NCBI GenBank assembly: GCA_905178155.1
Contig: CAJINV010000004.1
Coordinates: 2,626,228-2,690,227 of the forward strand
DNA from: Amoebophrya sp. A120
Taxonomy: Eukaryota > Protista > Dinoflagellata
DNA: 64,000 nucleotides
Direction of reading: 5' to 3'
Numbering within the stretch: the first letter of the stretch is position 1; each line of letters begins with the position of its first letter. Positions 10,890 through 38,700 of the stretch are shown here, piece after piece. Below the pieces are notes generated by a model, which was not told the DNA's origin, did not search any database, and was given only the letters and a program-made list of their open reading frames with translations. Made by a program: the position numbers and the translations under genes.

Positions 10890-13800
10890 TTACACGTCCT
10901 CCGGGTACGCCACCACTTTGCCTGTCTTATGGCGTTCTCAACTGTTAGTACATTCTCAGCTGCTACATGGACTTGTGATGCAAGAACCGCAATAGTGAAA
11001 GGAACAAGCTGTTGCAACTCTCGCATCACAATAAATTTGGCACTGATAATTTAGGCAAATTGTTTAGCCCTTCGGGAATTTTTTGCCACGCGCCGGAGCT
11101 TCATCAGCTTGATCGTCTGGCGGCTCATGGTAAATTTGCATGACAAATCATGCAACAGTTGAGAAGGTAACCGATTTGAGAACGCCATATGTGTCCAGAG
11201 TCACGGTCTTCATGAATCGGGATGGGTTCGGACATGGTCGGGGCTTGGGCAGATCGCCCTTGGTATCGCAAGAAAAAACTGTTTCACTGTGAACTTGTGA
11301 TGCAGGAAATGGCACACAGAACTCTTTGTCTTGCTACACCTGCAAGGCATTGGATTTTCAAGCGTGTAGTTTTCCCGTGGGAAGAGCGCATGACAAATTT
11401 TCAGTGTCATGTGTAGCAAACTTGTGATGCAGACCGTGCAAAGTCATCACAGTGAAACAGTTTTTTCCTGGGCTACTTGGTTGCCAGTTTGTACTGGAAG
11501 TATCAAATGCAAATATAGATCTGAGTGTGGAACACTGCAGCAAGCTTGTCGCACTAAATCTGAATGATGCAAAAATCTGTGTTCTTGCGTGAGTACAACC
11601 GAAAGCTGTCCGCGTTTGACCAAGTTGAGAGGGAGTTTTTCATGCAGGAAGGGCATGATAGAGACCTCAAAGTAGAATCTGTCATGCTAACTCTTCTTGC
11701 ATTCCAGACCTCATGGGTGCTCATGGAAAACTTGCATGACAAGTGTTCCAACGCGTTCCAGACCCAGACATATTTGCATTTTTTCATAGGAAGACTTCCG
11801 GCGCGAACTGCTCGGACAACTTCAACGACTCGGCGTATGGATGTGTCAGGATTGAAATCGTCAAAGTTGAAATAGTTTGTGATGCGTAAAATGCAACGCA
11901 GACATTGTCTCTATTGCAGAGGATGCAAGGGAGGCAGATTGTAAGCCTGTTGAGGGGTAGAAATAGAACTGCTAAAGTAGCATGACAAATGACGTCGCCC
12001 TTAACCAAACAGCATGACTAACTGGATTTAGGTTCTACCTAAATTTGTCATGCGCCGCTTGGAAATTGGGTTTCCGACTGGTATCCATTTTATGCATGGC
12101 AAATCATTTCAACTTTGTCGATTTCAAACCTGACGCTTCCATACGGTGGCGCCGGAGTTCTCCGAGCTCCCAGGGCCGCCGGTGCCAAGACGTTCCTCGC
12201 GAAGCGTTGCCACGTGGGCGGAAAACTTCGCGTCCGGGTTATCGAAGGGAAACGTCCCCCCTCCCCATATCAAGGCGGAACTTCTGACGCTGGATCTGTG
12301 GACACAAATCAGCTTTGTATTGCAGGAAGGGACGATTGCGGCCAGCTCCCCAATCTAGGTAGGGGCGTTTGGGTCTAGTTGCTCAGCATTGCAAACGGCT
12401 GCTCTTTGGGCCCAATAGCATGGAAAATCGCTTCAAAGGGCGCAAGCTTCTGCGTCTGCCCTTGTCTTCTTGCAAGACAAAGGTGATTCGTGACCGCATC
12501 AAATCAGCAACGCAAATCTTCGGACACATGCCTTTTCAATATGGGGAGGGCGAGTTTTTCCTTTCAATACAGGCCTCCCTCGACCTGGGTCGCCAGGGGG
12601 GTCCCCGCACACAGCTCCCCAATCGTTCTCGGGAACGGAGGAATCTTCTTCCCGGGGGGGCATCTTTCTTGCAACGGGTCGCCTTCATATGCATCTGCCA
12701 CTTCTTCTGGGTCGACGGCACAGCCGCCGTCCGTCAGGTCGACATGTATGAGGTTCCCAAGCGCTACATTCTCAACTGTTACATGAATTCATCGTCCACG
12801 CGATCAAGCTGCTTCGCGTGACAAATTTGCCTAGGGCCAAACAACACCTAAATCTGTGCGGAATTTGTAATGCTACAGGCGCAATCTCCCCCCTTTCACA
12901 CACTTGCTTTCCCATTCTTACGTCACAAATCCATGTAACAATTGCGAATGGAACAGTCGAGAACGCCATAATATGGCACCCGGGGTTGTCGCTCAGCATT
13001 GTAAAGGCTTGCGGGTCGCCGAAGAGGGACTCCCCGAACACGTTCGCCTCGTGCGTGGTGAAGATCACGGTTATACCGTAGACGGCCGCGAAACACATCA
13101 CGTTGCGAACCACAAGGGGGTATCCTGTGCAAAAGTATCGCACTCGTATTGCAGTCATGCATTATGTATTATGGTAAATCCGCATTATCTCATGCTGAGG
13201 AAATTTGTAATGCATTTATACGAGTACGATACTTTTGCAGTTCATAGGGGGTGACTTGTCGGGTCCAGGCCCTTGGTGGCCTCGTCCAGCAGCAGCAACC
13301 GGGGCCGCATCGCCAGGGCGAAGGTGATATCCTGTGCAACAGTAATATCGCAGTCGTAGTAATTGCAGTCATGCATTACAGATCTCCTTTCCAAGGTAAA
13401 ACTGCATGACAAATTCAATTTGCCATGCTGAGAAAATTTGTAATGCAATTTATACTAGTACGATACTACTTTTGCAATGCATAGGTGAGGCGGTACCGCA
13501 CGCGCTCCCCGTCCGAGAGGTTGATGACCGGTAAAGTTGTAGATTGGTATGTCGTCCCGGTCTCTTTGGGGACCGCGTCCAGGATTTCGGTAAAGTTGAA
13601 GAAGGACTCATGGTTCTTTTCGAAGCCCTCGTCCCACGTGGCAGCCTCTGAGTAGTTGCGGTTGGCGGGCCCAAACAGGCCCTTCCCGTGCTGCAACAGC
13701 TTGTCGTACATCAGGGTAACCCTGGCCACCAGCTTGAGGTCCTCGTCCGTCAACTTATTTGGGTTTCCCCCCAACAACTGCTGGCGGATACTCCGGCCTG

Positions 13801-16800: not shown

Positions 16801-19264
16801 ACCGTCCAGCCTGCTGTGCCTGCAACGGCGAAGCCTCCCTTGGCAGCCGCAGAGAACACCAATCCCTGCAGGTGCAGCAAGTTTCGGAGGATCAACACGC
16901 TTCCAAAAGAAGACGCGACCCCCATGGCGACGTACGCCATCAGGTAGCCCAAGTACTTCCGCCCGAAATGCTGGCCAAACGCAGTGCCAGCGAACAGCAT
17001 GCGCACCTTATCCTGAGTAAAAACGTACCCACGCCAGAGTTGTAATGCAGATTTGCAAAGACAGGAAGACTTGTAATGCGCATCCGCATGAGAGCCATTT
17101 CCAATTGTGCTTTGGAATTTCTGATGCTGTGAACAGGATGAGCAGATGAATCTGTGACGCGGCTGCACTTGCTAACCTGCACTATACTGCAGAGTGCAAC
17201 TTGTCATGCGTGACTCACAAAACTCCTAGGTTTGTGTTGCAAAATCCCCATCCTGACTCTGGTATGGGTACGTTTTTACTCAGGATACACCTGGCGGCAC
17301 CGGTGACAACCTCCCTTGAACTTCGCGGCATATCAAATGTAAAAGTGTCTGGGTGGTCTGGAAGATTGCAACTTGTCATGCTAAATCTGCAGCATGCAAA
17401 AATCTGTGTTGCATGATTACCAAAAGTCGTCCAGTTTTGACCAAGTCTGGAGGTAGTTTCTCATGAAGGATAGGCATTAGAAAGGTCTCGCAGAATCTGT
17501 CATGCTAGGTCCTGCATTCCAGACCTCATGGGTCATGGAAAAGCAGCATGACAAATCGCGCATTCTTCCAGACCCAGACATTTTTACATTTGATACGGAA
17601 AATCGCGACTTGATGCTCGCGACACCGCCCTTGAACTTGCGGTACGCGGACACGGTGGCGTTGCGCGCCCGGTCGAAGCTGTTGGCAACCTTCCCCAGCA
17701 AACCGCCTCTGGCTGACGACAATAGTTGTACCCGGCGCTTGATGCCCGTTTTTCGCACCAGAAAGCTCGTGCCTTTAATGTTCGAGGGCACGTGGAGGCG
17801 CGACGACGTCTCAACATCAAGGTCATGATGAACTTCCACGTCGTTTTCTCCATGCGGCCCGCCGTCCGCGAAAGTGTCGCCACCCAAACCGTTCAAAGTC
17901 GTTGGTGTGTTCATCATGGTGTAGCCTTTGTCCGTCGGATCGGGATCCGCATCCGGCAGCATGTCAAATGCAAATATGTCATCGATGGGTTTACTGGGAG
18001 AGTGGAAAACTCGTCATGCGTGCTGTCTTGAATAATTCAATGTAAAATCTGTAACTGTATTACATGACCTATTCTATTACCCCTCAACCTCCACTATCAT
18101 CCACTTTGACTTTACGACCAATCTGTATTGCATGACCAACGCGACAAAGTAAGGACCCGTTTTTTGATTGTCATGCGCATGCGCAGTTCTTAACGCGAAT
18201 TTACGCATGAGGAAGTCGTGCCCGGAACTACATCTGTCATGCTTGGCTGCACGACTCAGGAGTATGTTGATGTTCAATGATCGCCACTCACTTAGCAACA
18301 TCACAAGCTTATACATTATTCCAGACCCAGATGACATCATATTAATTTGCAACGCATACAGCAGGCGCCCTACTTCCAATAAGTCCTCCACCGGTAGAAT
18401 GAATTGCAAAAGTATCGCTATCGTACTCGCATAAATGCATTGCAAATTTCAGCATCATCCTCAGCATGAGAAATAGAATTTGTAATGCTGATTTCCATTC
18501 AAAAAAAGATTTGTAGTGCATGATTGCTGCACGACTACGAGTACGATACTTTTGCACAGGATAGGCAGATCCTCGTCGTCGATGTCCTCGTCCACCTTCG
18601 AGAAGGCCACATCTCGTATCACGCGAAAAAGGTGTTACAGTTCTATACGCATTGTGTTGCGAGCCCAGCATGACAGACAACCTTTGTCATGCCAGAAATT
18701 GCTCCGAGTTTCTGTTTCATTTCATCGAGTTCATTTCCCTCAATATGGTTTGCGCATTGCAAGTTGTCCTTCTCGTCAAGCAGAGAAATGAACTTGTGTT
18801 GCTGAAGTTTTTACAAAATCAAATGTGTAACAACTGTAGCCACGCTTTTTTCTTTTGATATCCCCTACCGTGGTTTTATTGTTACTGAAGCCCGGCAGGG
18901 GTGGGAGCTTTGACGCGGCGGTCCCGTTTGAAGATGTCCATACACGCCGAAGCGTGTCCAAGAACTGCTTAAACCGGCGAACGAATTTTTGCTGCTCCTG
19001 GTGCTGCTCCATCTGCGAGAGGAACGACGTGTTTTCATCATGGTGGTCTCGTCCCGTCGATTCCGAATCATCGAAGCTGGACTGTTGAATCGGCTTTATC
19101 GTTTCATCGTTCCTGGTCAGAGCATGATCCGGCGCAGGAGCTGCTTCGTAGGTCGTGAAGATGGAGGACCCTTTGATGTTGACGGCGACGGAAAAACTGG
19201 CCGAGTTGAGCAGGAGCAGGTGCAGCAGGGCCACAAGAAAGTTGCCCGAGGCACACAGAGCCAT
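10890..19264 (-). CDS. ABC transporter (signal peptide, TM region, one NBD) split by 18 introners
   Basis: Hydrophobic N-terminus; TM exons at ~16.7-17.0 and 15.4-16.0 kb; Walker A APSGQGKS, signature-like LSDGE, Walker B LLLLDEAT, H-loop IFTTH; all 18 joins in frame to TAA at 10890. Confidence 0.88.
10928..11189. mobile_element. Introner family G, 262 bp
   Basis: TIR TATGGCGTTCTCAA; DR TGTCT/TGTGT. Confidence 0.9.
11264..11475. mobile_element. Introner family I, 212 bp
   Basis: TIR core AAAAAACTGTTTCACTGTGA; DR CTTGG/CTTGG. Confidence 0.92.
11501..11788. mobile_element. Introner family A, 288 bp
   Basis: TATCAAATGCAAATAT..ATATTTGCATTTTTTCATA; DR GGAAG/GGAAG. Confidence 0.92.
11836..12143. 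mobile_element. Introner family H, 308 bp
   Basis: ~38-bp imperfect TIR TATGGATGTGTCAGGATTGAAATCGTCAAAGTTGAAAT; DR CGGCG/CGGTG. Confidence 0.9.
12240..12569. mobile_element. Introner family F, 330 bp
   Basis: TIR core CCTCCCCATAT; DR CGGGT/CAGGC (2 mismatches); frame restored. Confidence 0.85.
12747..12970. mobile_element. Introner family G, 224 bp
   Basis: TATGAGGTTC..GAACGCCATA; DR ACATG/ATATG. Confidence 0.85.
13121..13246. mobile_element. Introner family C, 126 bp
   Basis: DR GGGGG/GGGGG; join DPTSHPLVVRN. Confidence 0.93.
13328..13483. mobile_element. Introner family C, 156 bp
   Basis: DR GGTGA/GGTGA; join RLTFALAMRPRLLLLDE. Confidence 0.93.
14139..14380. mobile_element. Introner family B, 242 bp
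   Basis: TATGACAGTGCGCAAC..GTTGTGCACCCTCATA; DR CCGCG/CGCCG; element+5 removal in frame. Confidence 0.85.
14438..14765. mobile_element. Introner family F, 328 bp
   Basis: TATTGTGAGGAAAAATCCC..GGGATTTTTCACTTTGATA; DR CCGGA/CCGGT. Confidence 0.9.
14821..15030. mobile_element. Introner family J, 210 bp
   Basis: TIR core GTGTAAGTGTAA; DR ACAAG/ACAAG. Confidence 0.88.
15148..15409. mobile_element. Introner family A, 262 bp
   Basis: Family A TIR; DR GGAAT/GGAAT. Confidence 0.95.
15974..16671. mobile_element. Oversized introner (J-like ends), 698 bp
   Basis: TATCCAAGAAAAAAACA..TGTTTTTTCTTGAATTA; DR ATCAA/ATCAA; join KLQLIEKVSS. Confidence 0.82.
17009..17287. mobile_element. Introner family E, 279 bp
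   Basis: TIR TATCCTGAGTAAAAACGTACCCA; DR CACCT/CACCT. Confidence 0.95.
17331..17595. mobile_element. Introner family A, 265 bp
   Basis: DR CGGCA/CGGAA; nearly identical to 40093-40354. Confidence 0.95.
17962..18358. mobile_element. Degenerate family A-like introner, 397 bp
   Basis: DR CAGCA/CAGCA; join GRLLPDAD. Confidence 0.85.
18398..18563. mobile_element. Introner family C, 166 bp
   Basis: TIR core GCAAAAGTATCG; DR GGTAG/GGCAG. Confidence 0.88.
18617..18860. mobile_element. Introner family K, 244 bp
   Basis: Imperfect TIR TATCA..GAAAAA..TACAGTT; DR TCTCG/TCCCC; join TTVGDVAFSK. Confidence 0.78.
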
Positions 19265-20766
19265 ATTTTCTCCCGGGTGGCGCTCCAGGGCCGCGGCAAA
19301 GCGGAAGAGGGAATGAACTATCGGCGATAGGCTTTATTTAAAGGGAAAGGCACAATCCTTCCCTGCGCAATCAGCGCTCCAATTCTCGTCCGTTCTTCTG
19401 TCAGTTCAAATCAATCATGGGCACTTCTTCAACTTCTCGACGATGATTTAATATTTCCACATATCGAAAAATACGAATTCGAAGTTTATGAAAGGACAAA
19501 ATGCCGTAACCTGACAGGCACATGATAAGAGGGTGAGACCACAATGAATTCAGTTTTGCACGATCAAAAGGTTGAATTTTCAGAGTCCAAAGTCCGAGCT
19601 TCACCAGCATTCAAGGCACGACCGAAACATGGAAAATAACCGAGGACCGAAAATAAAGATAAACCGAAGGGCGAAATTGCGATCACCAAGCTTCTTGATC
19701 TTGAAATTCAGCAGAGTACCGACTCTCGAAATTCAGAACACCGATCTGCGAAAAGCAGAACACACACCGATCTACGAAAATCAAAACACCGATCTGCGAA
19801 AATCAAAGCCATCACTTGTTATACCGACCTGGCTATTATCAATCAAAAGCACTGCATTGCATACGCTTTAAACTTAAACAAAAAAGCAAGATTTGAAGTC
19901 TTCTCGCTTGATAAAAAACCAGAAAAAGCGTTTTCGCGAGACAGTAGTTGTGTTGTCCATGCTCACAGACCAAAAGAACAGGAACAGCCCTGAGTTCCTA
20001 CGGCCGCGACCCGTCCGGCGGCGGGGCGCCCACCAGCTTACAAAACCCAGTGGCTGTCTTGCAGTCGATGGGAATCGTAAAGTCAGCGCGTTTCATCATT
20101 CTTTTCTCGTAGTTCCTGTCGTTTCATCTATGGCGCCATGAGGTTGTACAGGTGCATTCTCATTCGCAAAGCACAGCCTCTCGTACTCGTAAAAAATCGA
20201 TAAGAAGCATTATTCATTTTCGAAAATTAGCGCTTCGGGCACCCGGAGGTGTATGCTACTGAGTAGTTTAACAAAAAAGTTGCATTTTTGGAAATTCAAC
20301 ACCAAATAAAGGACGATTCTATATCGGATGTCATTCAGGGTTTCGATTTTTCTCGATTTTTTTTGTTTTCTTCGAAACAGATGGATATTCATATTCTAGC
20401 TGAAACGGTTTCTGACTATGACTATGTAGTAATGTGACGATGGTAGATGTAAAGGTTCTCGTTTGGCGAGGTATCGTAAACCATCCTTGTAGTTTTTAAA
20501 CATGCCTGCATGCATTCAGGAAGCAGAGGCAGAGGTCGCGCTTTCATAAAACAAATTACATCATCGCCTTCGCGATACAAAGATGCACGGTCCTGCCTTC
20601 TGCTCCTGATCTGTCAAATCATATTTTTTTTGGGTGATGCTAATCATAGTTAGTAAAAAGGACTGACGAGGAGCTCCTCCTGCCTCTAGACCGCTTGTGA
20701 GTAGAACTTGCTTTGGATTTTGTTGCTTGAACGAGGTGTAGTTTGTGGCCAGCTCGCTCCGTATGA

Positions 20767-23700
20767 TTAAAACACCTCATCTATCAAATGCAAATATGTC
20801 TGGGTCTGGAAACTTCTAATGATGAGGGAGTTAGAATGTGGAGGCCACAAATGATGGCTCAGCATGACAAGTTTCTGAGCTTCTAAGTCTTGCCTATTCC
20901 GCATGACAAACTGCGTTTTTGCATCACAGAAAAATAGGGCCTTTGGGTAACGCGCATGACAGACTTAAGTAGGAGTCTTGCTAGCCTAGCATGACAAACT
21001 TTGTACTTTTCCAGACCCAGACATCTTTGCAATCCATATCATCCCGAACCTTCGCACAGAGGACCCGCGTGTTCAATTTTTCCGAGTCCTCTGTTTGCAG
21101 CAGCACCGGCGGCACTTCCTGCCGGGCGCACTGCGCCGTCACGCTGCCGAACATGCAGCCGGGGGGTGCGTGGCCCAGTCCGCACGCGTAGTCCTCCGAA
21201 CCTCCGAAGGTGTAGGAGTTCCCGGACGCGTATCCGAGCAAAAAAGAAGATTCGTGGGTTGTGTGCCTTTTTGTTTTTTGGCTGACCAGCATCACAAATC
21301 TGTCGGGCATGCGCATGTCGACAGCAGAAACCTGTCATGGGAGGATAGCATGTGAAACCGCACTTGAATTGTTGAGCTGGGCGCGCTCAGATGGCACCCC
21401 GTCCACGATTTTCTCCCGATTTTTTTAGATTTTTTTTTTAAAAAAAAATTTTGAAGTCGATGTTTGCAGGTGCGAAGTGGCCTGCTTTGAGAGCCTGCTT
21501 GTGACTGCCGTCAGTCGTATCTCAGTACTACATCACGCCAACAGTATTTCAACTGCACTTGCCCGCGAGTCATCACCTGTTTTTTTGGTTGAGGTGAACA
21601 TATACAATAGCTGCATCAATACTTAGACATAAAAAGATCGTAGTGCTACTGTGTTCGCGTTTTTTTTTCAAGGAGTGGTAAGAGATATAGAGCTAGCTAG
21701 CACGCAATCCCGTTTTTTTTTTACTGTACATACACAATTATGTATTTCATCGTGATCTGCACGTCGCCCGGGTCCGTCGTCTCGCCACTCCGCATCGCCG
21801 CGTAGCATTCCCGCCTAAGCCGTCAGCTGTCTTTTTACCGCGTCCTCGTTGCGACTTCGGAACCCGCAAAACCCGATTGTGATTCATGATGTAGAGCGGG
21901 TCGATGCGGGGAAAAAAAGCGCAACCTTCCGTAGAAGGGAGGAAGAATCCACATCCATCCGTCGGCAGCAAGCAGCAGATCCAACAACACCACCGCTGTT
22001 TCGTCCGCATCTCGACGTCCACTTTCCAGTCGTCCGCGCCACAACGAAGGGTGGCGTATTCGCAAATCCGCATTCGCTCCACGCCGCCACCACAGCTCGT
22101 CCACGCTGCGATAGGAACCACCTGAGGTTCAAAGTTTGCGAAGGCGGACGGAAGTTCCGCCGTCGTTCCAAATCCGCACTCCAGCCTCCGCTCGTGGCTC
22201 CGTAGCAGCCAACTCCGCATCGCGTCGTCGCATCGCGGATCCACATCGCCGTTCGCAGGCGGAGCAGTCGGGCTCAACGCCGCAATTCCGCTTTCCACAT
22301 CTCGCTGCCACCGCCGGCAAGTCCACATCGCAGCTCCGCATCCACTCCTGCCGCCGCAAATCCGTCTACGCCGCCACGAGAACCACCAAAGGTTCAAGGG
22401 AAGCGAAGGTTGTCGTCGCGAAATCCACATCGCAGGTCCACCGCGCGGCTCCACATCGCAGCTCGCCAACGCCGATCCACATCGCCGCTCCACAGCTCCA
22501 CATCGCAGATCCACACTCGCTCGCTCCACCGCAAATCTCCGCTCACGCGGCGATGGGAACCGATGGGGGTTCAAAAAATTCCAACGCTGCGGTCGCGGCG
22601 TCCACATTCGCAAAATCCACAGTCGCGTCTCCACATCGCAGCCCCGTCGGCACTGAATTCGCGGCGCAGCCCGACGGCCCGATCCGGTGTGCTCGTCAGC
22701 ACAAAGCTCAAACTACATTCTATTGTTGGCGTGATGTAGTAGCAGGCTACTTTACAGCGTATGCTAAGGCACGACTATCTTTTTCTATAGTAAACACTAC
22801 AGCCTCCCGAATTTCTATCCCGCCCGGGGAGGCGGCTTGCATAAAGCACTGCACGCATGCAACTGTCACACCGATCGCGCTTTTCTTTACTCTGTATAGT
22901 CGCACCGATATTACACATGCGCTTCTGGTTCATCACCGACTTTTCATTTGTATGCTGTGATCTACACCGACAACGTTCTCACCGACTTGTGCATTCATGT
23001 CTTGCATCGTGTTTCATCAAAGTTTGTCATGGGCAACAAGTAGAACATTATGTAGAAAAGATGGAAAAAAGCAGCAACTAGCTGGACGTCGACTCTATAA
23101 TTAAACTTTAATTTCCCCCCTCCTTCTGTAGATGGTTCTGCTTGAACTCAAGTAGAACATTTCTACAAAGGAGGAATTTTGCATTTACGTCAACATCTCA
23201 CACATCCACCATAACAGAGTTGTTTTTGATATATTATACAGAAAAACTCTACATATTATTTTTGATTAACAACTCTGCTCCCGCTCCTATTTACGTGTTG
23301 AGCTTTATTTATTATTCCCTCCACCACGTGTGAGACTGTTGGATATGGGCCTCCTGCCAGTAGGAACAGTGAGTTCTTTACGAAAACATTGAAGCCTACA
23401 AATATCATTAAGTCCCCGACAAAGTGACTCACTGACTGACTTACTGGTCCATACTTTTACTATTATGCACTTGTGGCAAGATGAAACTGTGCATTTTCGA
23501 AGTATAAAAAGTACGAAACAATAAATCAATCAAAACCTAGTAAAAGTTGCTTGAGTAGTATCCTCTGGTCGATCAAACCGACGGTGATGAAGCAGCAAAT
23601 ATTGGTATGTAAAGTGCGACTATTGCAAACAACTTTCACGACCAAAATTATCCGTCCAACTACTCATCCTCATCATCGGATCCGCCCGCGACCGCGTTGT

Positions 23701-26700
23701 TGGCAATGGGGGCGTTCACGTTGGCCTGCGCACCACCCGGCACGTGCAACTGGAGGTTGATTCTGCGTCTCTGGGGCGCGGGCTGATTGGCGTTCGCACC
23801 GGCCGGGTCGGCACCGTTCGGGAGCTGGCGGGTGATCTCACGCCAGAGCAATTGCTTCTGGGCGGGAAAGAGAAAACTGAATGGCACCGTCATACTGTTG
23901 TAAGCCTGGACGGACTCCTGGTACGATCCTGATATTATTTTTGGCGTGATGTTGTAGATGCAGTTTCGCATAGTATTATGCTCATTTTTGCTTTGCATAA
24001 ACCAATCTGTCTTGCATGCAGTAGGTCGTACTTCTAATTGCTTACAACCAAGAAATTTTCTGTGCGTATACCGTTCGCCAAAGCGATCCGCAACGGACCC
24101 TCCTCCAACTCCTGCATGCGGCGGACGAACTTCTCAAGCGTCTCACTCAACTTCTCCTGGATGGACGGGCACTCGGTGAACAGGCGCGCTTCCAAATCCT
24201 CCTTCATCGCTAACATGGTGTTGGCGCGGTCGGCATGCTCCTGGTGCGCACCACCGGTGTAGCAGTTGCACATCTCGCGCGTGATCTCGTGCAGGGAACG
24301 CCAGCGGTTGCGGGCGGGAAAGCGGATTCCACCCAAGAAGGCGTGCAAGTCGATCATCTCCTGCTGCGATCCGCGGTTGTCCCAGTCATGCAAGAAGTCA
24401 AAAGCGGTGCCAATGGCCAGGATGCGGCTGTCGAGGTCCCGCAGCTGCCCCTCCACGCGGGTCTGGTCCATGGTCAACAAGTAGCGGCGCAAGGCACCAT
24501 TGTGCTGCTGCGTGAAGTTGCCGGGCAATTTGGTGTAGTGCAGCGAGGTCGTGTTGGTGTAGGCGTCGTTCAAACCGATCAAAGTGGTGATGACCGGGTG
24601 CGGCTGGGGCAGGTTCATCCACTGGCGGATAGTGTTGACCATCTGACGCATCAAGCCCTGGAGATTTGCATTGTAGAAATTACAGACGAAACTATACGAC
24701 AATAAAGCTGGCACTTCAGTATCAAACTTGTTATGCAGGAAGATTCGTTTTTTGATCAACCAATAAAGTTCGCTCTCTCGGCTCGTGATAACTCTCAACT
24801 CAAGCAGCATGAAAAAGTAGTACCAAATCATGGATCTCCGGCTGGGGGGGCACCTCTCCCTGCGCGCGCTTGATCGCTTTCATCACCATCTCCTCAGCAC
24901 AACGCGAAGTGTCGAGCGCGCGGGTCAAGTCAGCCTTGCTACGCTATGAAAAAAACCTTGGAGCAACACACTGACTTCCTTTCAAAAGGTGCGCGACGGG
25001 TGCACTCTTCGACTTTTTTATCACTTCTTCTTGCATTTCCTCCACTGTATTTTGACGTCCTGTTCTCTTGGTACTTTTACAGTGCAGTACTTTCTTTTTT
25101 TCAAGTCCCAACCACGCGAACTCATGAGCATAGCATGCAGAGTAAAATCTGAAAGAGAAAGCAGTGCTTTGAGCCAAGGTTTTATCTTTGCATCGTCGCA
25201 CACGGTGAACTGGGCGCTACCGGTGCGCAAGAAGGTGCCGAGCTGAGTCTCCACCTGGGCCAACAGTTCGGCCACGGCGGCAGCGCGGAGCATCTGTTGT
25301 GGATTTGCAGTATGAAACGCAACATGCGTGCTCATCGTTTCAGGATATGTCTCTTATCAATATTGGATGCTTTGTTCGTCATCTGCGCTACACAGTAGCT
25401 CTGTCATGCATAGAAGCTAAAAACTTTGCTTCGTCAGTTTCCGACTACGCAATACACGACTCAACCGATGAAACGCGCTCACTTTGCAAAAGGCGCAACA
25501 CTATATACGTCCATCGCCTTCTCCCAGAACAACTCCTGGAGCGTCTGTCCGCCGTTGACGGGGGCACCCTGCAGCAACTGGGTGGCGATGGCGTCTTCCA
25601 GCAAAGACACCTGCTGCAGCTCGATCGCATTGCTGATCATCATCATGTTCTCGCGGATCTCGGGCATGTTGTTGTTGCCGGACACGAACGCGCGGGCCTG
25701 CGCGTACGCCCTGTTTTTTATTGTCAGAATGATGTATCTCATGAAATTACAGTTGCGTTTTTCTGTGGCACTGAAGCATGATTTCAATGGACCGACGTAA
25801 GATTACGATGTGAACAGCATCACTTTATCAACAAAAACACACAAATACACCAGTCGCGAAACTGGACCAAGGTCCGGGGCTGGCGGGCCGCGGTCCGCTG
25901 GAAGGCACCACCCTGAAACAAAGCGATGACTCCCGCGCGCTCCACTTCATCACGGGCTTCTGGGTGGCGCATTAAACCGCACAGACGATCGCACACGCCG
26001 AGAGCACGTAACCCGTTGGCCCGCCTCATCGGTCAGGGAGGCAAATCTCCCCTGGAGATGGACCTGAGTCGTGGTTCTTGACCATGATTTCCACTTCAAA
26101 TGGCAGTTTTGTCATGCAGAAATCCATACTTCACAAAAGCATCACGCGACTGCCATGTCGGTCAAGTTTGTGATGCACAAGTTCCAAAATTGATGTAGTA
26201 CTGCCACGCGACGTTCTTGCTCGAGCGTAGTATGATTGAAGTCGGCCCTTCCCAAACGGGCCGCTTCGCGGGCGATGATGTCGGTGCGCGTGAAGAGCAC
26301 GATCTGACGCACCGCCGAGGGCAACGCGGCCATGGACCTGGCGATGACGGCTTCGTGGGCCAGTTCGAGGTTACCGATCTGGGCGTCAGTCAGGGTGGAA
26401 AGGTACTGGACGCGACTCAAAAATTATGCAAGTTGCAACTCTAGCTCAGCACCTCAGCCGCGTCATGCATGCCTGGCTACTTCAAAAATGCAAAAGCGCG
26501 TGACAAACTCATATGATCAGATATGCTATTTCACACGCATTAAGCACGTAGTCGCACAGTTGGTCGAGACCAATTTGCATCATAGTTAGCATGACAAAGC
26601 AGTAGTGTAAGGTGCTGAGCTAGATATTGCTACCATAACAGACGGGTCCGCGTGCGACCTTCCTGACGCCAGAGGGCACCCATGGCAGCGACATGATTCG

Positions 26701-29700
26701 CGTCTTGCTGTAGTGGTAATTTTTTTGAATTTACAGTATGTCTGTTTCACATCGACAAGCGCCTGCTCATCCATGATAAAGGCACTCTATGCATGACAAG
26801 CTCAAAAATGTGTACCGGCAGAGCTGCGTTCTGCAGAAACTCCTGGGCGACCTCTCCAGTGGGGTGACGGGCCAATCTGTTTGCCATCTTGACACGCTTT
26901 TTTTTTCAAAGGAAGAACTCTCCACAAAGGAAGAACTCAAGAAGTAGCTGGCTACGGGTTTTGCGTTGATGAAGATGATGAAAAGCAAGTATTAGATGGC
27001 GCGCGTCAGAAATTCAAAATTGTAAAATGAAAGTATCCAAACAACATCAAGATCATCAAAGCAACCACCTTTTTTTCTTCACCATTACCACTGTCAAAGT
27101 GAGATCTCAGATCTATCCCATAACTTGAACTACAACAACAACAGTCATCTCATTCTAGGCACTACAATGCACTGCTTCATCTCTCACAAAAAAAAACAAA
27201 ACAAAGAGCCGACTTATTTGATGACGTCAGCACGTTTTTACCAAGTACTATGTGTGCTGAAGCTTACGACACGACAGCGCCACCATCGACGCCGAACTCA
27301 CACAAAAAAAAGCCTTGCTTTACTTCTGTATTGTGCGCGCAATTCTACCTCTATGACATACTTGCATGCTGTGCTATATCAACTCGAGAAGTGCCTTCTT
27401 TTTTCATGTATGTTCCACTACTTGCGTGTGCAGTCTGTCATGCTTCTTGTATGTCAATCCAGCGTACTCAATTTATGACATGCACTTCGAAGTCTACTAA
27501 TTTGTCATGCTGTGTATCACAAAGCAGCAGTACTATGCTGCTTCAACTTCCCATGAAGAGCTGCGCTATGTCCCTATGTGTATGCATGATGCTACTACTG
27601 TGTGGCTTTACTGTCACGCACTACGTCCATCTACAGGCACACTGTTTGTATTACAAGTTATGCACTTTCGCACGAAGTAAGGTCGTTCTACGCAGTTAAG
27701 ATTGTGCAAAGTTGTCAACGCTTCTGGCTTATATATAGGTCTTTTGCGCGATGCTAAAGTCTACAGCTGTTCCTATGTAATATTCAATTTGTGCACTATA
27801 TTCTACTACTTGCAATGAAACTACTGTCAGGCACGCCACTACTCTACACGGCTGGCCATCGGTAACTCGGACAAGAAGGCGAAGGTCATGGCGCAGATGG
27901 TCAACGCGTCATGGTGGTGATCTAGGGCTCGCAGGTATCCGTTCGTCCATGGTGACCATCTCCGTTGCCGCATGACCGCGAGGGTGAAGTAGTCGCGGTG
28001 GGCCAAAGTTCGATGACCAGCCGTGAAGTTACTACATACTACTTTACTAGGCTTTTCTTGTTCTAGTAGTGCTCTTTTTGGCACCTTCTACGCATTACAA
28101 ATTGACGCTTTCTTGTCTACTTAAAGCTACATTTTCTGACATCCTTTAAAAGTGACGACTTTTCCTCACAAAAAGTGATCATTTTTTCTGCTCAAAAGTG
28201 AACTCGAAAAATGAGACGCTTTGCAAATTTGACCTCGAAAAAAAAGTCTCCTGATTTTCTAGAAGGTGAACTCGAAAAAGTCTCGCGATAATGGAGAATA
28301 TAAGTAGGACATGAGTCTTTTTTCTAGACTTTTTTTTTGACTATGCAGATGCAAAGGGTGACTTCGAGGAGGAAAAGCGAGAGACTTTTTTTTGTGCTCA
28401 AAAGTGATCACTTTTGAGCTCAAAAAATGGCCACTTTTTGTGAGGAATAGTTGAGATTTCCTCTGAGAGATGAGTTGTACAATAAATCAATGCTTTTTGA
28501 GCCTGAAACTGTGCAGAGTATAAGCGTGCTCAACTACAACTTGAGGTGCCCGACCACCTTCACTGGGCCGGCACTTGGGACGCCGATTCTGCGAGCACAT
28601 CATGCTGTTTACCCGCACCTGCAGCAGCCATCTTTGGCTGCTTTTTGGTCTTGGCCTTGATCCTCTGCTTCTCCACAAGGACGTCGGCGATTTCCAGGTA
28701 TTCTGCGTCGATCTTCTGGAAATCCAACCACGACGTAGTCGACTTTCCGGGCGAGAGGTACTTGTAGGTCTGGTCAGAAATGTGCATCAGAGCGTCGAAC
28801 TCCTTCTGCCTGGTAGCGTCCTTTCCAGCACGTTCGGCGGCAAAAGCACGGATCTCCGAGGTGTAGGCGGCGTACTGGGACTTCAAAGCCTCCAAATCAT
28901 CTTCGGTGGACTGCGGTTCGTACTTGCTGTTGGAGCTGGCTTTTTCGCAGATGAGACGGCACATCACGGCCCACCCGTTTAGGAGGCACTCGACCCAAAG
29001 GGGTCCCTCTTTCTCGCCAAGCACCATGCTCCTCATGGGCCTCTTCGTCGACTGGCACTTCATGTCCAGGTAGGGGTGGACGAGGAGCTTTTTCATGTTG
29101 TTCGCCAGCTTGGTGTCCACGCACTTCATGCTCAGTCGGACAGCATCTCTTCCGGTTCTCTTGCGGTCAAACACCGTCGACGCTTCGATGCATTTCCACC
29201 CTTCGACTCTCGTTGCGAAGAGACGATTAGCAACCTTCTGTCGCTCCAGCTGATGCAGTGCGTATTCCTTGCTCGAGAGGTGCATCTTCGCCGTCGCAGA
29301 AAGGGCAGTCATACCCTGCGTTTCCACCTGCGTTGAAGCCTGCGCTTGCGGTTCCTCCACGACGATCTTGTTCGTCTTTCGCCACGTTTCCGCATGGACG
29401 TCATCCGACTGTAGTGGCATTGCTACCATCTTGTTGTCGTCCAGAACCCAGATCTTGTCGGTCGATTTCGGCGCGGTCAAAGCCAGCATCGTAGGCTGCA
29501 GAAACTTCTCCAAGTTGTCCTGCATTTGGGCTTTCTCGCTATTGCTAGCGGAGGCCCACTCTTCCCTGAGCACCTTGTCCTCCTCCTTTCCCGCCTTGGT
29601 CCGCTGCTGCCGGTGCGACAGGTTGATCCGTTCTCCACAGAACAGGCACGCTTTGCTTCTGCCGTCCTTTACGTCGACTTTCATCGTGTACATCGGCCCG

Positions 29701-32700
29701 AGTGTATCCCGTGAAAAGCATTGAAGCTGCAAGCCAAGCATTACTACTATGCATTAGATATTTGCATGAAATATGTAAAGGCTTTGCGCACAAGAAATCA
29801 AAATTTGTAATGCAAAAATCAACATTTGTGATGCTTGTCATGTAGCTTCAATGTTTTGGCTGCATACATCGCATCCAGGTCGTATTCGGTGCCGCGGTCG
29901 TCGGAGTACAAGTTTATCCAGGTCATTCGCATCCTGCACTGCCACCACTCCTTTCCCGGATCTTTCTGCAGTGCTAATTGCACCGCTTTGAACGATGATG
30001 GAGACAGCACCACGTCTGAAATGAGGAACGTGTGCACTTCCCCCGACGGACGGTGCTTGTACTGCGTTATGAAGAATGGCGACAATAACGACGACACGTC
30101 GTGCACCCCCTGCAGTACCGGCATCGCGATGTTGTCGTCTTCCCCAACTTCGTCTGCGTCTTCTACCAGCAGTTCGTCGTCGACTATCGATCGCAGCAAT
30201 CTTATCCTGCGAAGAAGGCCAAAGTTTTTGTATGCAAGCATGCGAAGCTTTCTGTTTCTTCGCAGGATAAGATTGCTGCGTTTCGATAGCATCATCATCC
30301 GGCTCGGCGAGGTTCAGGTGAGCTAGATCACCGGGCTCGATTCCAGCAGCCTTCTTCTCTTGTCGCAGCGATTTCAGCTTACCGCGCTTCGCCCGGATGA
30401 AACGCGATATCAGCACAGCAGAAGCCGGTTTAACTTTCGCCCGCACCGTCACCTCCGGCGGCTTTTCCACTGTAATCAGCTGGTTGGTTCTGTTGCACAT
30501 AGCGGGTGCAAGTTTTCGATAGTCGCCGTCTTTTGTCAAGTACTTTTGCAGCACTCGTTCCTGCACCCCTTCGTAGTACAATTTCTCGCGGTTCACGACA
30601 GCAAATTCCCGGACTTCTTCCTCCTCTTCTTCGCTTTCTTCGGCATCCTCATACTTCAGCTCCGCCGCTAGTAGCTCCTTCTTCTTATCCATTTCCGCTG
30701 CGATGATGGTGTATTTCGCTTTTTCGTCGTCGTCCTTCCAGGAATTCAATTTGTGACACTTTTCTAGCACGTCCGCCGCTGTCATCTTCACGACTTCTTC
30801 ACCGTCCTCCCACTGGTCTTCCCGTTTCGCATCTATCGGTCGTGTGCAGGCGTAGTGCCGTTTCGCTGCGGGTTCGCCGGTATCGTCGTCTTCTTGATCC
30901 GGTAGCAAGTACGGCCGGCATTCCTCTTCCACCACCGAAGCCATGTTTTGCCAGTCCTTTCTGTTTAGCTGCGCGTCCGGTCGTATGCGTTGAAAATATG
31001 TAACATAGCCTCCTGCAAGTAAAAATCAAAACTGAAAAAGCGCTGCAATTTGCATGCAAAAAGTTACGCTCTCATCATGTCGCTGCACAGATTCGTCATG
31101 CCTTATGTAGTACGTGGCGCCTTTTCAGAAAAAAACCTGCAATGCAAGAAAGCTATGCTACACATTTTCATTTCATAACTCCGGGGATACTCTTGGTTCC
31201 AGTCTTGCGCCGCTTCGTATGCCACTTGTAACGTCCACCCCGTTTCTCGCAGTTTTTGGTGCTGCGGTTGGCAACTTCGAGGTATTCGGTGAGGGATTTC
31301 ATCTTCGCTTCGCGGATGTTCTGCGGCAGATTCCGCATATACCGCTGTACAGAATGAAGCGATATCGACCCGGGATCCCCTTGCGTGTACACGTCGAGCT
31401 TGCACTTGTCCAACTGCTCCAGATCGCACTGCCCGTCGCGATAGAGAAGAATACAGCGGGAGATGATGAGGACGCGTTGTGCATTTATCCGCGCCAGCTC
31501 TATCTGTTTTGCATTTTAATTCTAAGTATGCACTTCAAAAGTCCTCGCGTCATGCTGGAAAATGTGCATGACAAAATGGAAAGGCTGTTTTATTCTATAC
31601 CAGTTCAAGTTGCGCATCCGAAAGCGTCACGCTTCCGATCCCGATGCCGCACATCAAAAACGCCAGATCATCCAGCACTGCCTGTTTGTCGCTGAAGTAG
31701 TTGCACGCGCTGACGAGATCCTCCCGAAAGGTTTGCTTCAATGCCGCCCGTCCTTTTTCCCGAACATTGCTCCGCAGCATGCTACCATCATAACGCTCGA
31801 TGGGGCGTATCAAGTGAAGCAAAAACCAACTCGTCACCAGGAAGAGGAATTGTGTTCCTGATTTTGTTATGAGTTCGTTGAAGATGTAAGTTTGTCATGC
31901 TGGATTGGCAAAAATGCATGATTTTTGCATGAGAAAAAATGTGCATTTGCATGCTTTTCTACCATGCACTCTGTGGAACCGTCGACGCATGGCAATATTA
32001 TGTATTTGTAGTGCCTGTCTTGTTGCGCATGTCCACCGTAAAACCATGCTCCAAGATTTTCTCTTGGCCGAAAGAAATTCTTTCGCCCAGTCCCGTAAAA
32101 ATTCTTCCTAGGAAGAACGCGGTCGCCAGGGAGAGCTGCGTCAGACACGACATCACCGCCAACCATCGTGTCCAGACCGGACATTTGAAGCCGCGGCACA
32201 GACAATGCAGCGCTCGCATGCATTGATGCTTGCTGTTTCGCGGGATGACGAGCAACTTCTGCCGCACACTGCAGTCCCGGAAGAAGTCTTTTTTTTTCGT
32301 GTCCATCGGTAGGCGGTCCAAGAAAGCACACAGCTTCTCGTCTTTGGGTGGTTTCTCTCCTTTGTCCCACGGAGCGAGCCATTGCTCCACCTGGTCGAGG
32401 CCGTTGTGGATCTTCTCCTGCAGCAGCTTGATGCTGTGAACCTGGATGATAAATATAGAAAACAATGTTGATGCGCATAATATTTCATTTGTCATGCGGA
32501 ACGTCATAAAATTTGTCATGCAGAAACGAAGCAAATACTGCGTGGCTATACCTGTAACCAAAGCCTTTTTTGCCAACCAACCGGGTCGAGGTTCATCATC
32601 CCCAGGTATAGCTCCGCAACCTGCTTCGTAACAAGGGCGGTTTGATGGACTTTACAGCGTTGCGTCCAAAGTACAACGTCGGACAAGTACTTGGACGCCA

Positions 32701-35700
32701 TGAACAGGCCCCCGACATAAAACAATGTCGGGATTGTACTACCGCCGGAGTCCGTAACCGGCGACCATACTTTGATGGTGTTCTGCGACCAGTTACTGAA
32801 AAAAACTTCCGGCGAGTGATACGTCCATAACTGGTCTGCCACCTCAAAAGCTTCACTGTACCCCCGGAATGCTGATTTTTGGTTTTGTTGTCGTGGTCCA
32901 AAATCGTAGCTCGATGGGTACATCACAGTATGTGATGGAAGGAAGACGGAGCCCATTTTGTCGATGTTGCCACAGCAAAAAGTTATTGCCACCATGCTGA
33001 TCATGACGTGGGCAAACACTTTTATTTTTCCGCGAGTGCTATTCTCAAATAGCATGTTTTGGCACGTAGTGCCATCTATTTCGACTCGATAATGTACGAG
33101 GGAAAACCTGCTGCTGTCGTTGAAGTAGGTCTGGCTGAACTCGAAACACGTCTCGACCAGCAGTGCGGCTAGTTTCCACAACTTCCTCGGAGCGAGGTAC
33201 GACTGGCTGCGAGTTGAAAGAGGCCGCGTGCTCCTCCTGTTTTTCGTTCTGTTTCGCCGCCGCATCTTCTTCTTGCTTTTTTGTCTTCGGCGCCTGGTTC
33301 TTCTTCACCATTTTCCTACTCCGTGTTGTTACGCCGAAAAACTGGCGCGGAAACACAAACGACGGCGGAAGAACAGGACCGCGCCAATAGATGCGGACGC
33401 AGTTGTTATTATATAGCTTTACTTAGATGGGATTGCGTGCTAGCAAATTAATTATTTTATCTTAGGTATGTGGGTACTGCTTAGTTTAAAAAAAAAACCT
33501 GCCTGCTAGTAGGAGAATAGAATACGCATTTTGTATTTCCAAAAAAAAATACTTGCGTTTCCCCGTTCTCGTGCTGGCACTCTTCCGCAGCCCTTCCCTC
33601 CTGATAGCGCAGCCAAAAAATCTCTCAGCCTTCTCTTCTCACACAAAAAAGCAGCTCGTTTGGTATTTCGAAAAAAACGTCGCTTCTTGCATGACAAAAA
33701 AATTACCGAACACTGCCTGCAATTATTGCAGATGTAGTTGCAGTTCGCAGCCGCTTCTCGGCGCAAGATGTTACTCGCAGCGACACTGCGAGCGCTTTTG
33801 TTTTGTGTGTATCTCCCACCGCCCGGTCGCGCTACCACTTTCCTACCGCTGCCTCTTCTACCCGCGCCGACTGCTTGCCCGGTTCTATTCTGCAGAGGAA
33901 AGTTCTTGTTGCTATTCACGCGAACGCGAACAGGTGCAGTTTCGTTTCCCTTTTTTACAAAATAGCCGACTATACACAAGCCCGCTACAGTTAGAAAGGA
34001 AAATCGATAAGCTCTTTTGCCGTACTACATGATCGTCGTGCTATGCATTTCGAAATGCATAGCACGATGATCATCGACAAAAGACTTTTCGTTTTTCTCT
34101 TCAGCCTTCGAAGTAGCAGCTCTGTAAAAGTCCTCCGCTGTGTGCAGCTGTATCTCAAAACCGAATACACGAGGGTCGACGGTATTATTTGGCTGCGAAA
34201 GTTCGCAGCCAAATAATCGAGTAACAGCTGCACGTTGATCAGTACTATTTTATTTGCGCCGCACATCCGCGTATGGATTGTTGTGTGTCGTGATTACTCA
34301 TCGACACACAAGAATCCAAACCTGGGCGCTATGCTACGAAAATAGTACTGATCGCATCGCGGAAAAAAAACTTGTCGCCGAGAATCGAACCGGCGATCGC
34401 AAAAAGGGTGAAAAGGGACTGAGACAAACAACTCGGCCCCTTACCCGCTCGGCCAAACGGCCGAGCGGACTGCATCGGTCATCGACCTCGGAGACCCTAT
34501 CACAGCCCAATACGGGCTGTGTACGTTGTCGACATTTTTGATCATGCGTTTCCGCATGATAAACTGCTTTGAGCGACACGACGACAGCCAAGTCGTCTGT
34601 CGCGATAGAAGTATAGTGCCGGGTTTCGAACCCGACCTCGCGAAGGGTGAAAAGGGACTGAGACAAACAACTCGGCCCCTTAACCGCTCGGCCAAACGGC
34701 CGAGCGGACTGCATCGGTCATCGACCGCGGAGACCCTATCACAGCCCAACACGGGCTGTGTACTTTGTCGACAACTTTGAGGATGCGTTTCCGCATGGTA
34801 TACTGCTTCGAGCGATACGACGACAGTCGCGTCGTGTGTCGCGATAGCAGTATAGCGTCGGGTTTCGAACCCGACGCTATCGACGGCCAAAAGGAACTGA
34901 CGGAAGCAGCTAGATCGCTATTCCGCATGGTATGGTGGAGGATCGACAAGTCGAATGACCACCATACCATGCGGAATAGCATCGATGCAGCATACCATGC
35001 AGTTTCGACCAAAAAAATGAGATGAGAAGGCGAAACCGCTATAGAAATGCACCTAACGACGTGAGTAGCAACTTTGTTTCCAATGCAAAGTAGACCGTTT
35101 TTTTCCAAAATTTTTCAAAAAAAAAAAATCTCAAAAAATTGAGAGAAAATCAGATGACTTTTTTCATCTGAGGCGCCCAGCTCAAGAATTGACGCTACAA
35201 TGCATGGCCAGCATGACAGACGCAATCACCGGTATACATGTTGCGCGTCAGAAGAAACTTACGCCTACAAAAATCTTTTTTTGATGTTGGATAACGCGTC
35301 ACAGGTGCACGTGGCGGCCCAGAATTCCGGTAAGGGGTTGTCGGAAACAGAGTGGATTAGAACGTCACCTGTGATGCGGAGGAAAAACATTCGCAATCTC
35401 GTTACTTATTTATCTCTCGTGGGAAACAAGCAAGGAGATATTGATACCCTGCGACAGCGACGATGCTATCGTGTATGGGGGTAAGACTTTGTGCTGTCTT
35501 CAGGCAGCGCACAATATGAAATTTTATGTCTAGTCATTGTAATGCTAATGTAAATGAGAGTCTATCAACACGAACATCATATACGCGCGTCCGTCCTGCC
35601 GCAAACCGCTTTCTGGTGGTGTTTCCTGCTGGACTGTCCGGTTTGGTACGCAATGCTGGTGTATCAAATGCAAATGCGTCTGGTTCTGGAACAGTGCAAC

Positions 35701-38700
35701 TTGTCATGCTGCGTTTGGATGCTAAATAAAATCTGTATTGCATGAGCAGCAAGAGGAGTGGTCAAATTTGGCTACGCTACGAGGGCATTTGTCATGCGAT
35801 ATGCGCATCGATGAGCGCTCAAAAAATCTGTGATGCTAGGGCATACATCACAGACATCGCGGATCATGGAAAATGTGCATGACAAACTTGTCTTTTTCCA
35901 GACCCAGACATACTTGCAATCCATATGGTGGCCAGGTCTTCACAACCGTCTATCATGGTCCCACCAGTGCACAGGGACTCGCAGTTTTTCTCGGTGCCAC
36001 TCACGTCGAAGGTCTGCGGAAATGAAGAGTTTTTGGTCGTCTTTGTTGTGGTGGTCACAACTGTGGCCGTCGTGTTACTTATACATCTGGGATGATAATT
36101 AACATTAACATTAAGGATAGCGCGAAGCAAGACAAAACATAAAATTTTCTCAGTCGAATCATACATAAAATACCTGTGTCCCGCACGAACAGGTTCCGCC
36201 GAAGACCGGGTCTCCCTTTATGGAGTTCTCAAACGTTACTGTTACACTCTCAGCTGTTTACAAGATGAATGTGTGATGCAAGAGGGCCATCAAAAGTGGA
36301 AGGGGATCCTGGTCCTGCTGCGCGTCCCGCATTACAAATTCGGCACAGAAGTAAATCTCCATGCACATGCTGTTTACCGCTACTGCAAGAAAAATTTGTC
36401 ATGCCAAGTGGCTCGAGCGTATGGGGGCTGATAGGTCTTTTGCATGACTGCATGTCAATGACAAATCACGTAAATAACGCTGACAATGTTTGTTGTATTA
36501 ACGCTTGAGACCACTTCCATACCCTTGCGTTTTCGTTTCTTGATTTCCGTGTTGTACATCGCGCGGCGGTCTATTCTGGGTAAAAACGTCCCTACCCCAG
36601 AGTTGTCATGCTAATCAAAATGCGACACAGTTTGCCCCCCCCATTGTACCATGGCCGCAGATGGCTTGACACGCAGGGCGGGCGTCATGCAAATCACCCC
36701 AGAGTTGTCATGCAAATCTGCATGCCAAAAACGTTTCTCATGCGGAGCCCCATGCTGAGAAGCGTTCTCTATTAGTGTTTGGCAATTTGTGATGCTAGAA
36801 TCAGCACGATGTGCTGGCTCTGTGATGCTTCTGAACTAGCTCAACAGGATTAACCTACGACGACAAATTTGTCACGCGAAACATCAACCGAAGCTGGTGG
36901 ATTTGTATAGCAGATTTCGCATCTTGACTCTGGTGTGGGGACGTTTTTACTCAGGATACGGTCAGCCTTTTCCTTGTCTTTGTCAACCCCGCCACCGTTA
37001 TGCATTGCAAATATGTAGTCTGGGTCTGGAAACTTGTAATGCATGTCAGTAAACAGGAAGCGCACTGTAATGCACCGCACAGCATGACATATTTTCTCGT
37101 GGCTCTGTGTTGCGTATTCCGCATGAGACTCATTGTTTTTGCATGACAGACAAGAGGAGGTCTTCGTTGCCACGCAATACAGATTTCAGAGTCATGCCAA
37201 ACTCGCATGAGAAATCTCATAATCCTCCACGTCCACACCCAGACATATTTGCAATGCATAACCGTTCTTCCCCTTCACCGACATCCCGAGGAGGGACGAA
37301 AAGTAGCCCTTCACATGACCTGAAGTTGGTGTTCAGTGGTGCGTTGGTAAAAATCCTGTTTGTTCCTGATGTGTCGTCCGTGATATCATAATCAATAGCA
37401 ATAGCGCTCGAAGATGATGGGCACTTTTCAACACCACGACGACTTCTAAGCTGTAGCTGTACCTGTAGTCTAGTGAAGCAACACCAAAAATTACGGCACA
37501 GGTACGGGAGTGATTTGTTTCGAGATATCGGAGTCACGACCACAAGAAAAACAAAAATTCAAAATCCTCGAAAGAATAAGTACGTGGGATCTGCTGGATG
37601 CTTGTTAGCACCAGCGCATGCGCCCCGGACGCGTTGCAGGTGTCGTAGTTGTAGGCGTTTTTACTCTTCAAGGCGGGCTCCAGGGACGAATCCAGTAGCT
37701 TCTCCAACGACGCGCACTTCGCCCCGTTCTGGTAACACAGTATCCACAGCAAATTTCCCGTACGCGTACAAATGCCGTTTCTGCATGACAAAGCTTCCCT
37801 TCGATCCTGTTCAGCATGACAAGTTGTCTGCTCTAAGTTAGTGAAATTTGTGTTGCATGTTGTACCTACTTGTACGGGAAATTTGTATTGCATACACAGC
37901 GCGTCGCAGCACCAGTGGCAAGGCGTGTTTTTCTCGTGGTGCGCTAGGCAATCGTGCTCCGCTTGGAAGTATCATCTGCAAAAGAATCGCACGTATACTA
38001 ATTTTCTTCACAGTTCGGCATGACAGATCTGCATTTGCTTCGGCGTCCCTATCCCTTCACTTCTGAATTCCAAGTTAGCGTTACAAGTTCCATCTCGATT
38101 TTTATTGTTCTTTGTTAATGCAGGATCCACGTTGACGTTCTTGTAGTACGGTGCTTTAGCTTTTGCAGTGCATAGAAACTGTTCGCAGGTCGGCGCGTGT
38201 TATCAAATGCAAAAATGTCTGGGTCTGGAAAAAAGCAGCGCTTATCATGCATATTTAGCATGACCCGCCCTGATGTCTCTGATGCATGTCCTAGCATCAC
38301 AGATTTGTTGAGGGCCTTGTGATGCCTGTACTGCATGAGAAATGCCTTCTCCGTGTAACAAAAAATGGACCTCTTTTGCTAGTCACGCAATACAGATTCT
38401 GTGTAGAATCCAAAGGCAGCATCACAGGTTGCAACCTTCCAGACCCAGACATTTTTGCATTTGATACGTGTTGGAGTAGAACCAAGCCCTGCGGCGCGGA
38501 GCGAAGTCGGCCACCTGCTGCATTCGGAGCTGCTGTGTCCAGGACTGCCGCCTGTGGACCACCTCCGGACGACCGGTCTATAGCCTTGGACAGGTCGCAG
38601 CTGTCATGCCCGAGCCCGTTTTTGCTGCGGCCGTAGTACCCGCTGCTATCGAGAAGGCCCTAGTGAAGATTATGTCGATCGTAGTAAGGCGGGGAGTGAT

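Follow-up and report, generated by a model that had tools for sequence, protein, structure and literature searches.

An introner of Amoebophrya sp. A120 likely stretched to 14 kb by a nested inverted-repeat element, with single-contig evidence that the flanking exons are still joined

The non-canonical introns of the dinoflagellate Amoebophrya sp. A120 have a mean length of 240 nt, and it has been left open how they are removed without a detected U1 small nuclear RNA and what moves the introners (PMC7789003; here and below, each paper is cited for the portions drawn on). The same source reports two putative transposases in Amoebophrya A25 and none in A120; it analysed introns of 40–1000 bp with a mapping limit of 10,000 nt, and therefore could not have included an intron of 14,068 nt. 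According to Dataset file 8 of PMC12130899, among 32 of the 58 A120 rows, some families, typically 150–300 bp long, have coordinates reaching 13,922 (fam21) or 7,143 (fam16), and coordinates reach 16,127 in fam3 and 18,837 in fam135, the last with automated hAT5/hAT6 termini tags, these names denoting hAT families with target-site duplications (TSDs) of 5 and 6 bp, respectively (PMC12730594). The columns of this file are unlabelled; read as alignment positions, they probably mean that long nested members are already implicit in the public annotation, and this weighs most against the novelty of what follows, whereas the words “nested,” “cargo,” and “safe haven” do not occur in the main text of PMC12130899. 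Here, we analyse a 64,000-nt stretch of the A120 genome (contig CAJINV010000004.1, positions 2,626,228–2,690,227, forward strand; the whole stretch is called the window, and coordinates refer to it), in which an element with terminal inverted repeats (TIRs) lies inside an introner, which in turn lies inside a host exon. In this nest, a likely autonomous-type TIR element has lengthened an introner to 14 kb, with the exons still joined according to a single contig.

From outside in, the nest consists of the host exon, a 243-bp introner, and a 13,814-bp TIR element with termini TTGAG..CTCAA. The left and right TIR arms (21372–21455 and 35103–35185) are 78.8% identical over 85 aligned columns, match exactly in their first 13 nt, and are flanked by exact 6-bp TSD copies GAATTG (21366–21371 and 35186–35191), just as an earlier note on this DNA had placed them. 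The 85-bp TIR of that note holds as an alignment length, while near-exact repetition is confined to a 21-nt core, the remaining arm being degenerate and A/T-rich. Further out are the two parts of the split introner, both on the minus strand, namely, the 3′ half of 141 nt (21231–21371, one GAATTG copy included) and the 5′ half of 102 nt (35192–35293), which add up to 243 nt with ends TATCC..GGATA and are bordered by the direct repeat ACGCG (21226–21230 and 35294–35298), again in agreement with the earlier note. This outer repeat can be extended to a 6-nt palindrome, ACGCGT (21226–21231 and 35294–35299). With one repeat copy kept, the removed unit comprises 14,068 nt, and the exons join in frame (FWAATCTCDASGNSYTFGG). 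The terminal sequences of the introner, TATCCGAGCAAAAAA and TATCCAACATCAAAAAAA, contain TAT, about seven variable nucleotides and then at least three A, as expected for A120-type introners, and ACGCG on both sides provides the border direct repeat of 3–5 nt typical of them.

Short elements that end in TAT..ATA and for the most part have 5-nt repeats abound in the window, which fits the A120-type introners (PMC7789003), and no full-length copy of either introner half is present elsewhere in the 64-kb window. The inner pattern, that is, an exact 13-nt inverted repeat (IR) with an exact 6-nt direct repeat, arose by chance in two out of 100 windows simulated with an order-3 Markov model; the real window contains seven pairs of this type, the other six of which, judging by coordinates, link copies of introner repeat families. 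The looser pattern of the outer ends was seen in four of the 100 simulations and has two matches in the real window, namely, the nest and a poly-T pair of unrelated introners. At the nest, the inner and outer patterns are concentric, and taking both out restores the reading frame. The nesting is real, and we infer that the introner came first and the transposon second. Another large nest had been suspected at 7880–11785 and was rejected, as this region contains separate ordinary introners.

The larger of the two genes in the element, gene A (28560–33265, minus strand; modelled from exons and homologs), has seven exons and 1,299 open codons and likely encodes a hAT-like DDE transposase. It has a single terminal stop and six introns: three GT–AG, one GC–AG, and two non-canonical introns of the IR type on the minus strand, at 30187–30286 and at 29703–29866, the exact borders of the latter being ambiguous. 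With these two introns, four nested levels can be counted at the locus: host gene, introner, transposon gene, introner. Nine homologs of gene A were found at E ≤ 0.001, five of them named Amoebophrya proteins, and relatives occur in Amoebophrya A25 and AT5.2. Gene A is collinear with the A25 protein P0006 in seven tblastn segments (27–53% identity), which backs the exon model; an alignment search returned P0004 alone. Word-indexed searches with two gene A exons against longer proteins yielded no matches, and in Atlas one of two exons gave no usable match and the other a best score of 0.77, below the useful range.

Residues conserved across the homologs are, in order, D64, D172 (in TDSGG), C204xxH207, W328TRW331, and E552, the last one in three out of three homologs; the motif SLHSVQR, once considered for the region of the catalytic E, was dropped, as the homologs have no E there. 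In the hAT and Mutator-like element (MULE) transposases, CxxH and W lie after the second D and before the E (PMC5225508, PMC4763223). Gene A has the motif order of both, with residue roles assigned by eye and the motifs shared by MULE. The TIRs and the 6-bp TSD, known from a single insertion, conform to hAT6, and the classical 8-bp hAT TSD is absent. The 6-bp TSD does not fit MULEs or Pack-MULEs, which have one of 8–10 bp along with long TIRs (PMC5225508). For IS3EU the 6-bp TSD fits, but the termini are TTGAG..CTCAA and not TAYGG..CCRTA. Maverick/Polinton elements carry genes for a protein-primed polymerase, an integrase, and a capsid; no such Pfam match was observed in the 19 open reading frames (ORFs) scanned, gene A has introns, and a gene B exon, P0002, and P0009 are all without relatives in viral contigs. 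At the N-terminus, homology is better in another frame for P0007 (40% vs. 20% identity) and about equal for P0001, which suggests a frameshift near the gene start; an in-frame ATG is present at 33265. Taken together, gene A is likely an unannotated transposase that works like the hAT-type ones, though we do not file it as hAT6, and likely the element's own gene rather than cargo.

To look at exon joining, four runs were compared with positions 18700–38600: X3, consisting of contigs and taken for RNA by guess only, and X8, X9, and X10, consisting of raw reads. Of the 22 joints, 15 were listed, and statements about absent joints cover those listed. The joint 21225→35294, which the earlier note had proposed to look for, was found in X3: it skips 14,068 nt in one contig at depth 5.3, with 24 letters on the short side and six shared. 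Depth is likewise 5.3 at the joints 35366→35583 and 35656→35926, and the two neighbouring introns are also missing from the contig. In record 6 (386 nt, depth 5.3), position 35926 is letter 172 of the record, and the three pieces before it (24 + 73 + 74 = 171) leave no space for a 243-nt introner, assuming that the three joints belong to one record, the letters between pieces being marked “not known.” The AG acceptor is absent in all seven registers of the 21225/35294 junction, and the data support for this non-canonical junction comprises one contig from one probable RNA run. From this contig, there is a cDNA in which all 14,068 nt are absent.

Record 2 of the same run (depth 16.6) stops at 21231 and overlaps by 30 nt with both record 3 and the joined piece, each of which begins at 21202, as is seen where an assembly graph branches into a spliced and an unspliced form. 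Record 3 (21202–21769, depth 6.93) is unspliced and runs across the left TIR junction into the left end of the element; therefore, the X3 sample carries the insertion, as far as its left junction is concerned. Record 4 covers 22617–22828 at depth 3.9, and depth is zero in all 17 bins from 23348 to 34635, genes A and B included. The empty interior bins argue against DNA as the source of X3, which probably behaves as RNA and holds both joined and intron-retaining forms; splicing of the composite would then be incomplete. An additional observation concerns X10, which carries introner sequence related to 36921–36958 and 37757–37822 with different flanks; thus, the organism in X10 shares repeat families and not this locus.

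The host gene lies on the minus strand. Its exon is divided by the nest into a downstream part (21039–21225, SGNSYTF...VRD; X3 record 2 and model) and an upstream part (35294–35368, DVLIHS...TCDA; X3 and model), which carries the right copy of the outer repeat, and further exons follow upstream at 35583–37735 (joints 35366–35583 and 35656–35926 from X3, the rest modelled). The modelled frame is stop-free across nine exons to the last intron and, with the X3 joint 20776–21039, ends a few codons beyond it. The in-frame joining of the exon halves noted earlier stands, whereas the Cys repeat they were said to complete is visible by eye only, and neither of the host exon pieces containing it matched a Pfam family. 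Because the X3 contig joins the exons and the host frame is open, both disruption of the host gene and misassembly at the left junction, considered in the earlier note, are disfavoured. The host gene also contains a 387-nt introner at 36572–36958; its relatives at 17009 and 48454 measure 279 nt, and the additional sequence of about 108 nt is located near one end.

Can the introner ends find each other across 14 kb? The predicted pairing energy of the outer ends (30 nt) is −13.4 kcal/mol, the weakest of the 20 introns compared, and with 10 nt of exon flank −26.3 kcal/mol, the second weakest, but 16 of the 19 comparison introns had been chosen by an IR scan and are biased to strong pairing, so that the contrast is inflated. 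As the outer repeat is palindromic, the exon flanks are predicted to pair, nearly doubling the end-pairing energy. The 3′ end of the introner has better decoy partners inside the 14 kb, with energies down to −31.8 kcal/mol with flanks. Since the outer ends pair weakly and better decoys lie between them, they would likely require assistance to pair across 14 kb, for which the inner TIR stem is the simplest candidate. The TIR duplex has a predicted energy of −84.6 kcal/mol, compared to −45.4 kcal/mol for the next-best partner of the 5′ TIR, and co-folding of the two ends yields 115 intermolecular pairs in a nested stem that begins at the exon repeats and reaches the TIRs. The net end-to-end interaction is predicted at −41.3 kcal/mol with the TIRs, −15.2 without them, and −12.7 ± 2.7 over 60 shuffles of one TIR.

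We consider it probable, with room for doubt, that the 14,068-nt composite is removed in cis, as a single non-canonical intron of one pre-mRNA, aided by a TIR clamp. In this scenario, the 13.8-kb element with its likely hAT-like transposase gene would have inserted into an existing 243-bp introner; the inner TIRs would pair and close the insert into a loop; the clamp would rebuild the shape of the short introner, so that the host machinery sees an ordinary substrate; and the host would splice out the whole nest in cis and rejoin the exons. The safe-haven idea of the earlier note is thereby supported, through the X3 join and the open host frame, and corrected in two parts. The element was called cargo-carrying, while the larger gene A is likely its own transposase, and gene B may be cargo or accessory. 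Excision by pairing of ends 14 kb apart was proposed, and the ends can indeed pair, but weakly and in competition with better decoys, so that help is likely needed.

Several observations, along with the biased choice of comparison introns, weigh against this reading. The junction is seen in one of four runs and in a single contig, from a run whose RNA status is a guess, and X8–X10, with only 5, 2, and 70 partial reads, respectively, none of them on exons, provide no test of the joint. Depth is no lower for the unspliced contig (6.93) than for the spliced one (5.3). The predicted energies speak for the possibility of a clamp and not for its use: TIRs pair by definition, and any TIR pair would score so. 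The earlier note had proposed a search for other TIR copies; no second copy was found in scans of metagenome and viral contigs, the single match to the TIR pattern in the former being rejected as chance, with no similarity beyond the pattern, and the latter giving none. As for gene A, Pfam contained nothing significant for its exons or full-length homologs, and hAT domains such as the C-terminal one were not detected in the exons, P0004, or P0006; NCBIfam contained nothing for full-length P0004 and P0006, and a PDB profile search gave two rows, neither significant. Both single-sequence folds failed (predicted local distance difference test 39.6 and 33.3) and were too poor for a structure search. 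Moreover, this copy of gene A may be inactive, because X3 shows no depth over it and its N-terminal homology falls mostly in another frame.

Similar depths of the spliced and unspliced contigs would also fit if some cells lacked the transposon, through excision or because it never inserted there, in which case the joined mRNA would stem from ordinary splicing of the 243-bp introner, and the gene would be disrupted or poorly spliced in the carriers of the insertion. The empty introner is predicted to fold with its ends paired, like a normal introner, and the modelled frame of gene A is open, both in line with such an empty allele. Still, we find it unlikely: the inserted left junction is present in X3 (record 3), no 21371→35192 joint is among those listed, depth in the 5′ introner half is almost nil (0.05), and gene A has none.

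False junctions produced by reverse transcriptase occur preferentially at short repeats next to stable stems, both of which are present at this locus. Here, the RNA would keep its 14 kb, and the enzyme would cross the hairpin by jumping from one 6-nt direct repeat to the other. Junctions existing only in cDNA are documented (PMC8240250), and intron-retaining RNA is indeed seen at the 3′ end of the intron, fading inward (6.93, 3.9, 0). However, the depth of the joined contig is close to that of the unspliced one, the 5′ end and interior of the intron are without depth, the jump would happen to restore the reading frame, and the many introners with direct and inverted repeats in this genome must truly be removed for the genes to read (PMC7789003). 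Such a skip seems distinctly unlikely.

Less probable still is removal in two steps, as in twintrons, where the TIR element would be spliced first at its own 6-bp repeat, followed by the restored 243-nt introner: the inner element does have introner-like anatomy, with an IR plus a direct repeat and the strongest stem of the region, but its ends are TTG..CAA and not the TAT..ATA of A120-type introners (PMC7789003), and no intermediate is among the joints listed, though it could be short-lived. The same low standing applies to trans-splicing, in which a 5′ transcript that terminates soon after entering the element would pair with another, started near the left end of the element, via the TIRs and introner halves, since, although RNA-like depth within the intron is limited to 1.6 kb beside the downstream exon and the ends as separate strands form a predicted dimer of −158.5 kcal/mol, the 3′ bias of a poly(A) library would presumably give the same fade, the 5′ partner inside the element shows no depth, and there is no promoter evidence. 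Removal in cis with the aid of the TIRs is thus retained as the working explanation.

Besides gene A, the element contains gene B (23660–26888, minus strand), a multi-exon ORF set known as a candidate exon model only. The GC content at its third codon positions is 0.73–0.81 in three pieces, which is coding-like, and searches of Pfam, NCBIfam, PDB, and viral contigs gave no significant match for the pieces. Gene B is interrupted by an IR element (24947–25193) whose arms measure 27 nt and whose ends are degenerate. A second nested IR element, of 1,212 bp, lies at 21528–22739, with TA on both flanks, low-complexity internal repeats and 19–21-nt inverted ends, a third, weaker copy of the end motif being found at 23936–23956. 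Between genes B and A there is a small IR element (28158–28451) with 44-nt arms (89%), around which no duplication was found; it contains internal 23-nt repeats and a part similar to the right TIR. The 82-codon ORF at 27842–28087 (minus strand), also located between the two genes, contains RALDHHHDAL, which is reminiscent of a RuvC-III motif, and has no match in Pfam or NCBIfam. A region of long palindromes and two 239-bp tandem repeats (33999–34980) adjoins the right TIR and possibly represents transposase-binding subterminal repeats. Outside the nest, an array of 18-bp tandem repeats at 53351–53506 probably encodes an Ala-rich repeat.

Introns often contain transposons, and such a location is in itself ordinary; the useful aspects of the nest are its missing splice signals and its length. 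A 58-fold natural expansion of an introner that still gives joined exons is a ready test of the mechanism, speaking for a mechanism that recognizes paired ends and against one that requires the hairpin to be short and compact. A transposase family that Pfam misses would also reopen the argument that A120, being without transposases, rules out transposase-driven introner spread (PMC7789003). A broader proposal, which we hold to be doubtful, is that gene A represents an overlooked hAT-like family present throughout Amoebophrya (A25, AT5.2, and this genome), that a sister family with a 5-bp TSD would be the missing introner mobilizer, that TIR elements would generally hide in introners as their inverted ends fold out an insert of any length, and that splicing would read the structure of the ends and ignore the length.

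A literature search revealed no description of this nest or of the protein family of gene A. Among the known systems, the A120 introners are closest, sharing the ends with TAT, about seven nucleotides and an A-run, the short terminal IR, the 5-nt direct repeat, and the non-canonical borders; at 243 nt, the introner without its insert fits their 240-nt mean, while the unit removed here is 14,068 nt long (PMC7789003). For the families of PMC12130899, among the same 32 of 58 rows, there is no transcript test and no CxxH-type transposase. The element resembles hAT6/hAT5 in its TIRs, 6-bp duplication, and the D–D–CxxH–W–E order of gene A (PMC12730594), and differs from them in having no match to a hAT hidden Markov model, a protein of 1,299 aa with a long uncharacterized C-terminus, six introns, a second gene, and a length of 13.8 kb. 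PMC11282704, in the portions concerned, adds nothing on long introns. The nonconventional introns of Euglena likewise have no GT–AG, show terminal pairing and short direct repeats, and have been proposed to originate from miniature inverted-repeat transposable elements (PMC11170887, PMC12501133); however, the reported maxima in Euglena gracilis are 4,682 and 5,931 nt, the consensus is CAG..CTG, and the lineage is unrelated (PMC11170887). In Amphidinium carterae, genes also occur inside introns (25.2% of genes), and introns reach 87,555 nt, but their AG acceptors are near-universal, and thus ordinary spliceosomal recognition explains those long introns (PMC12584245).

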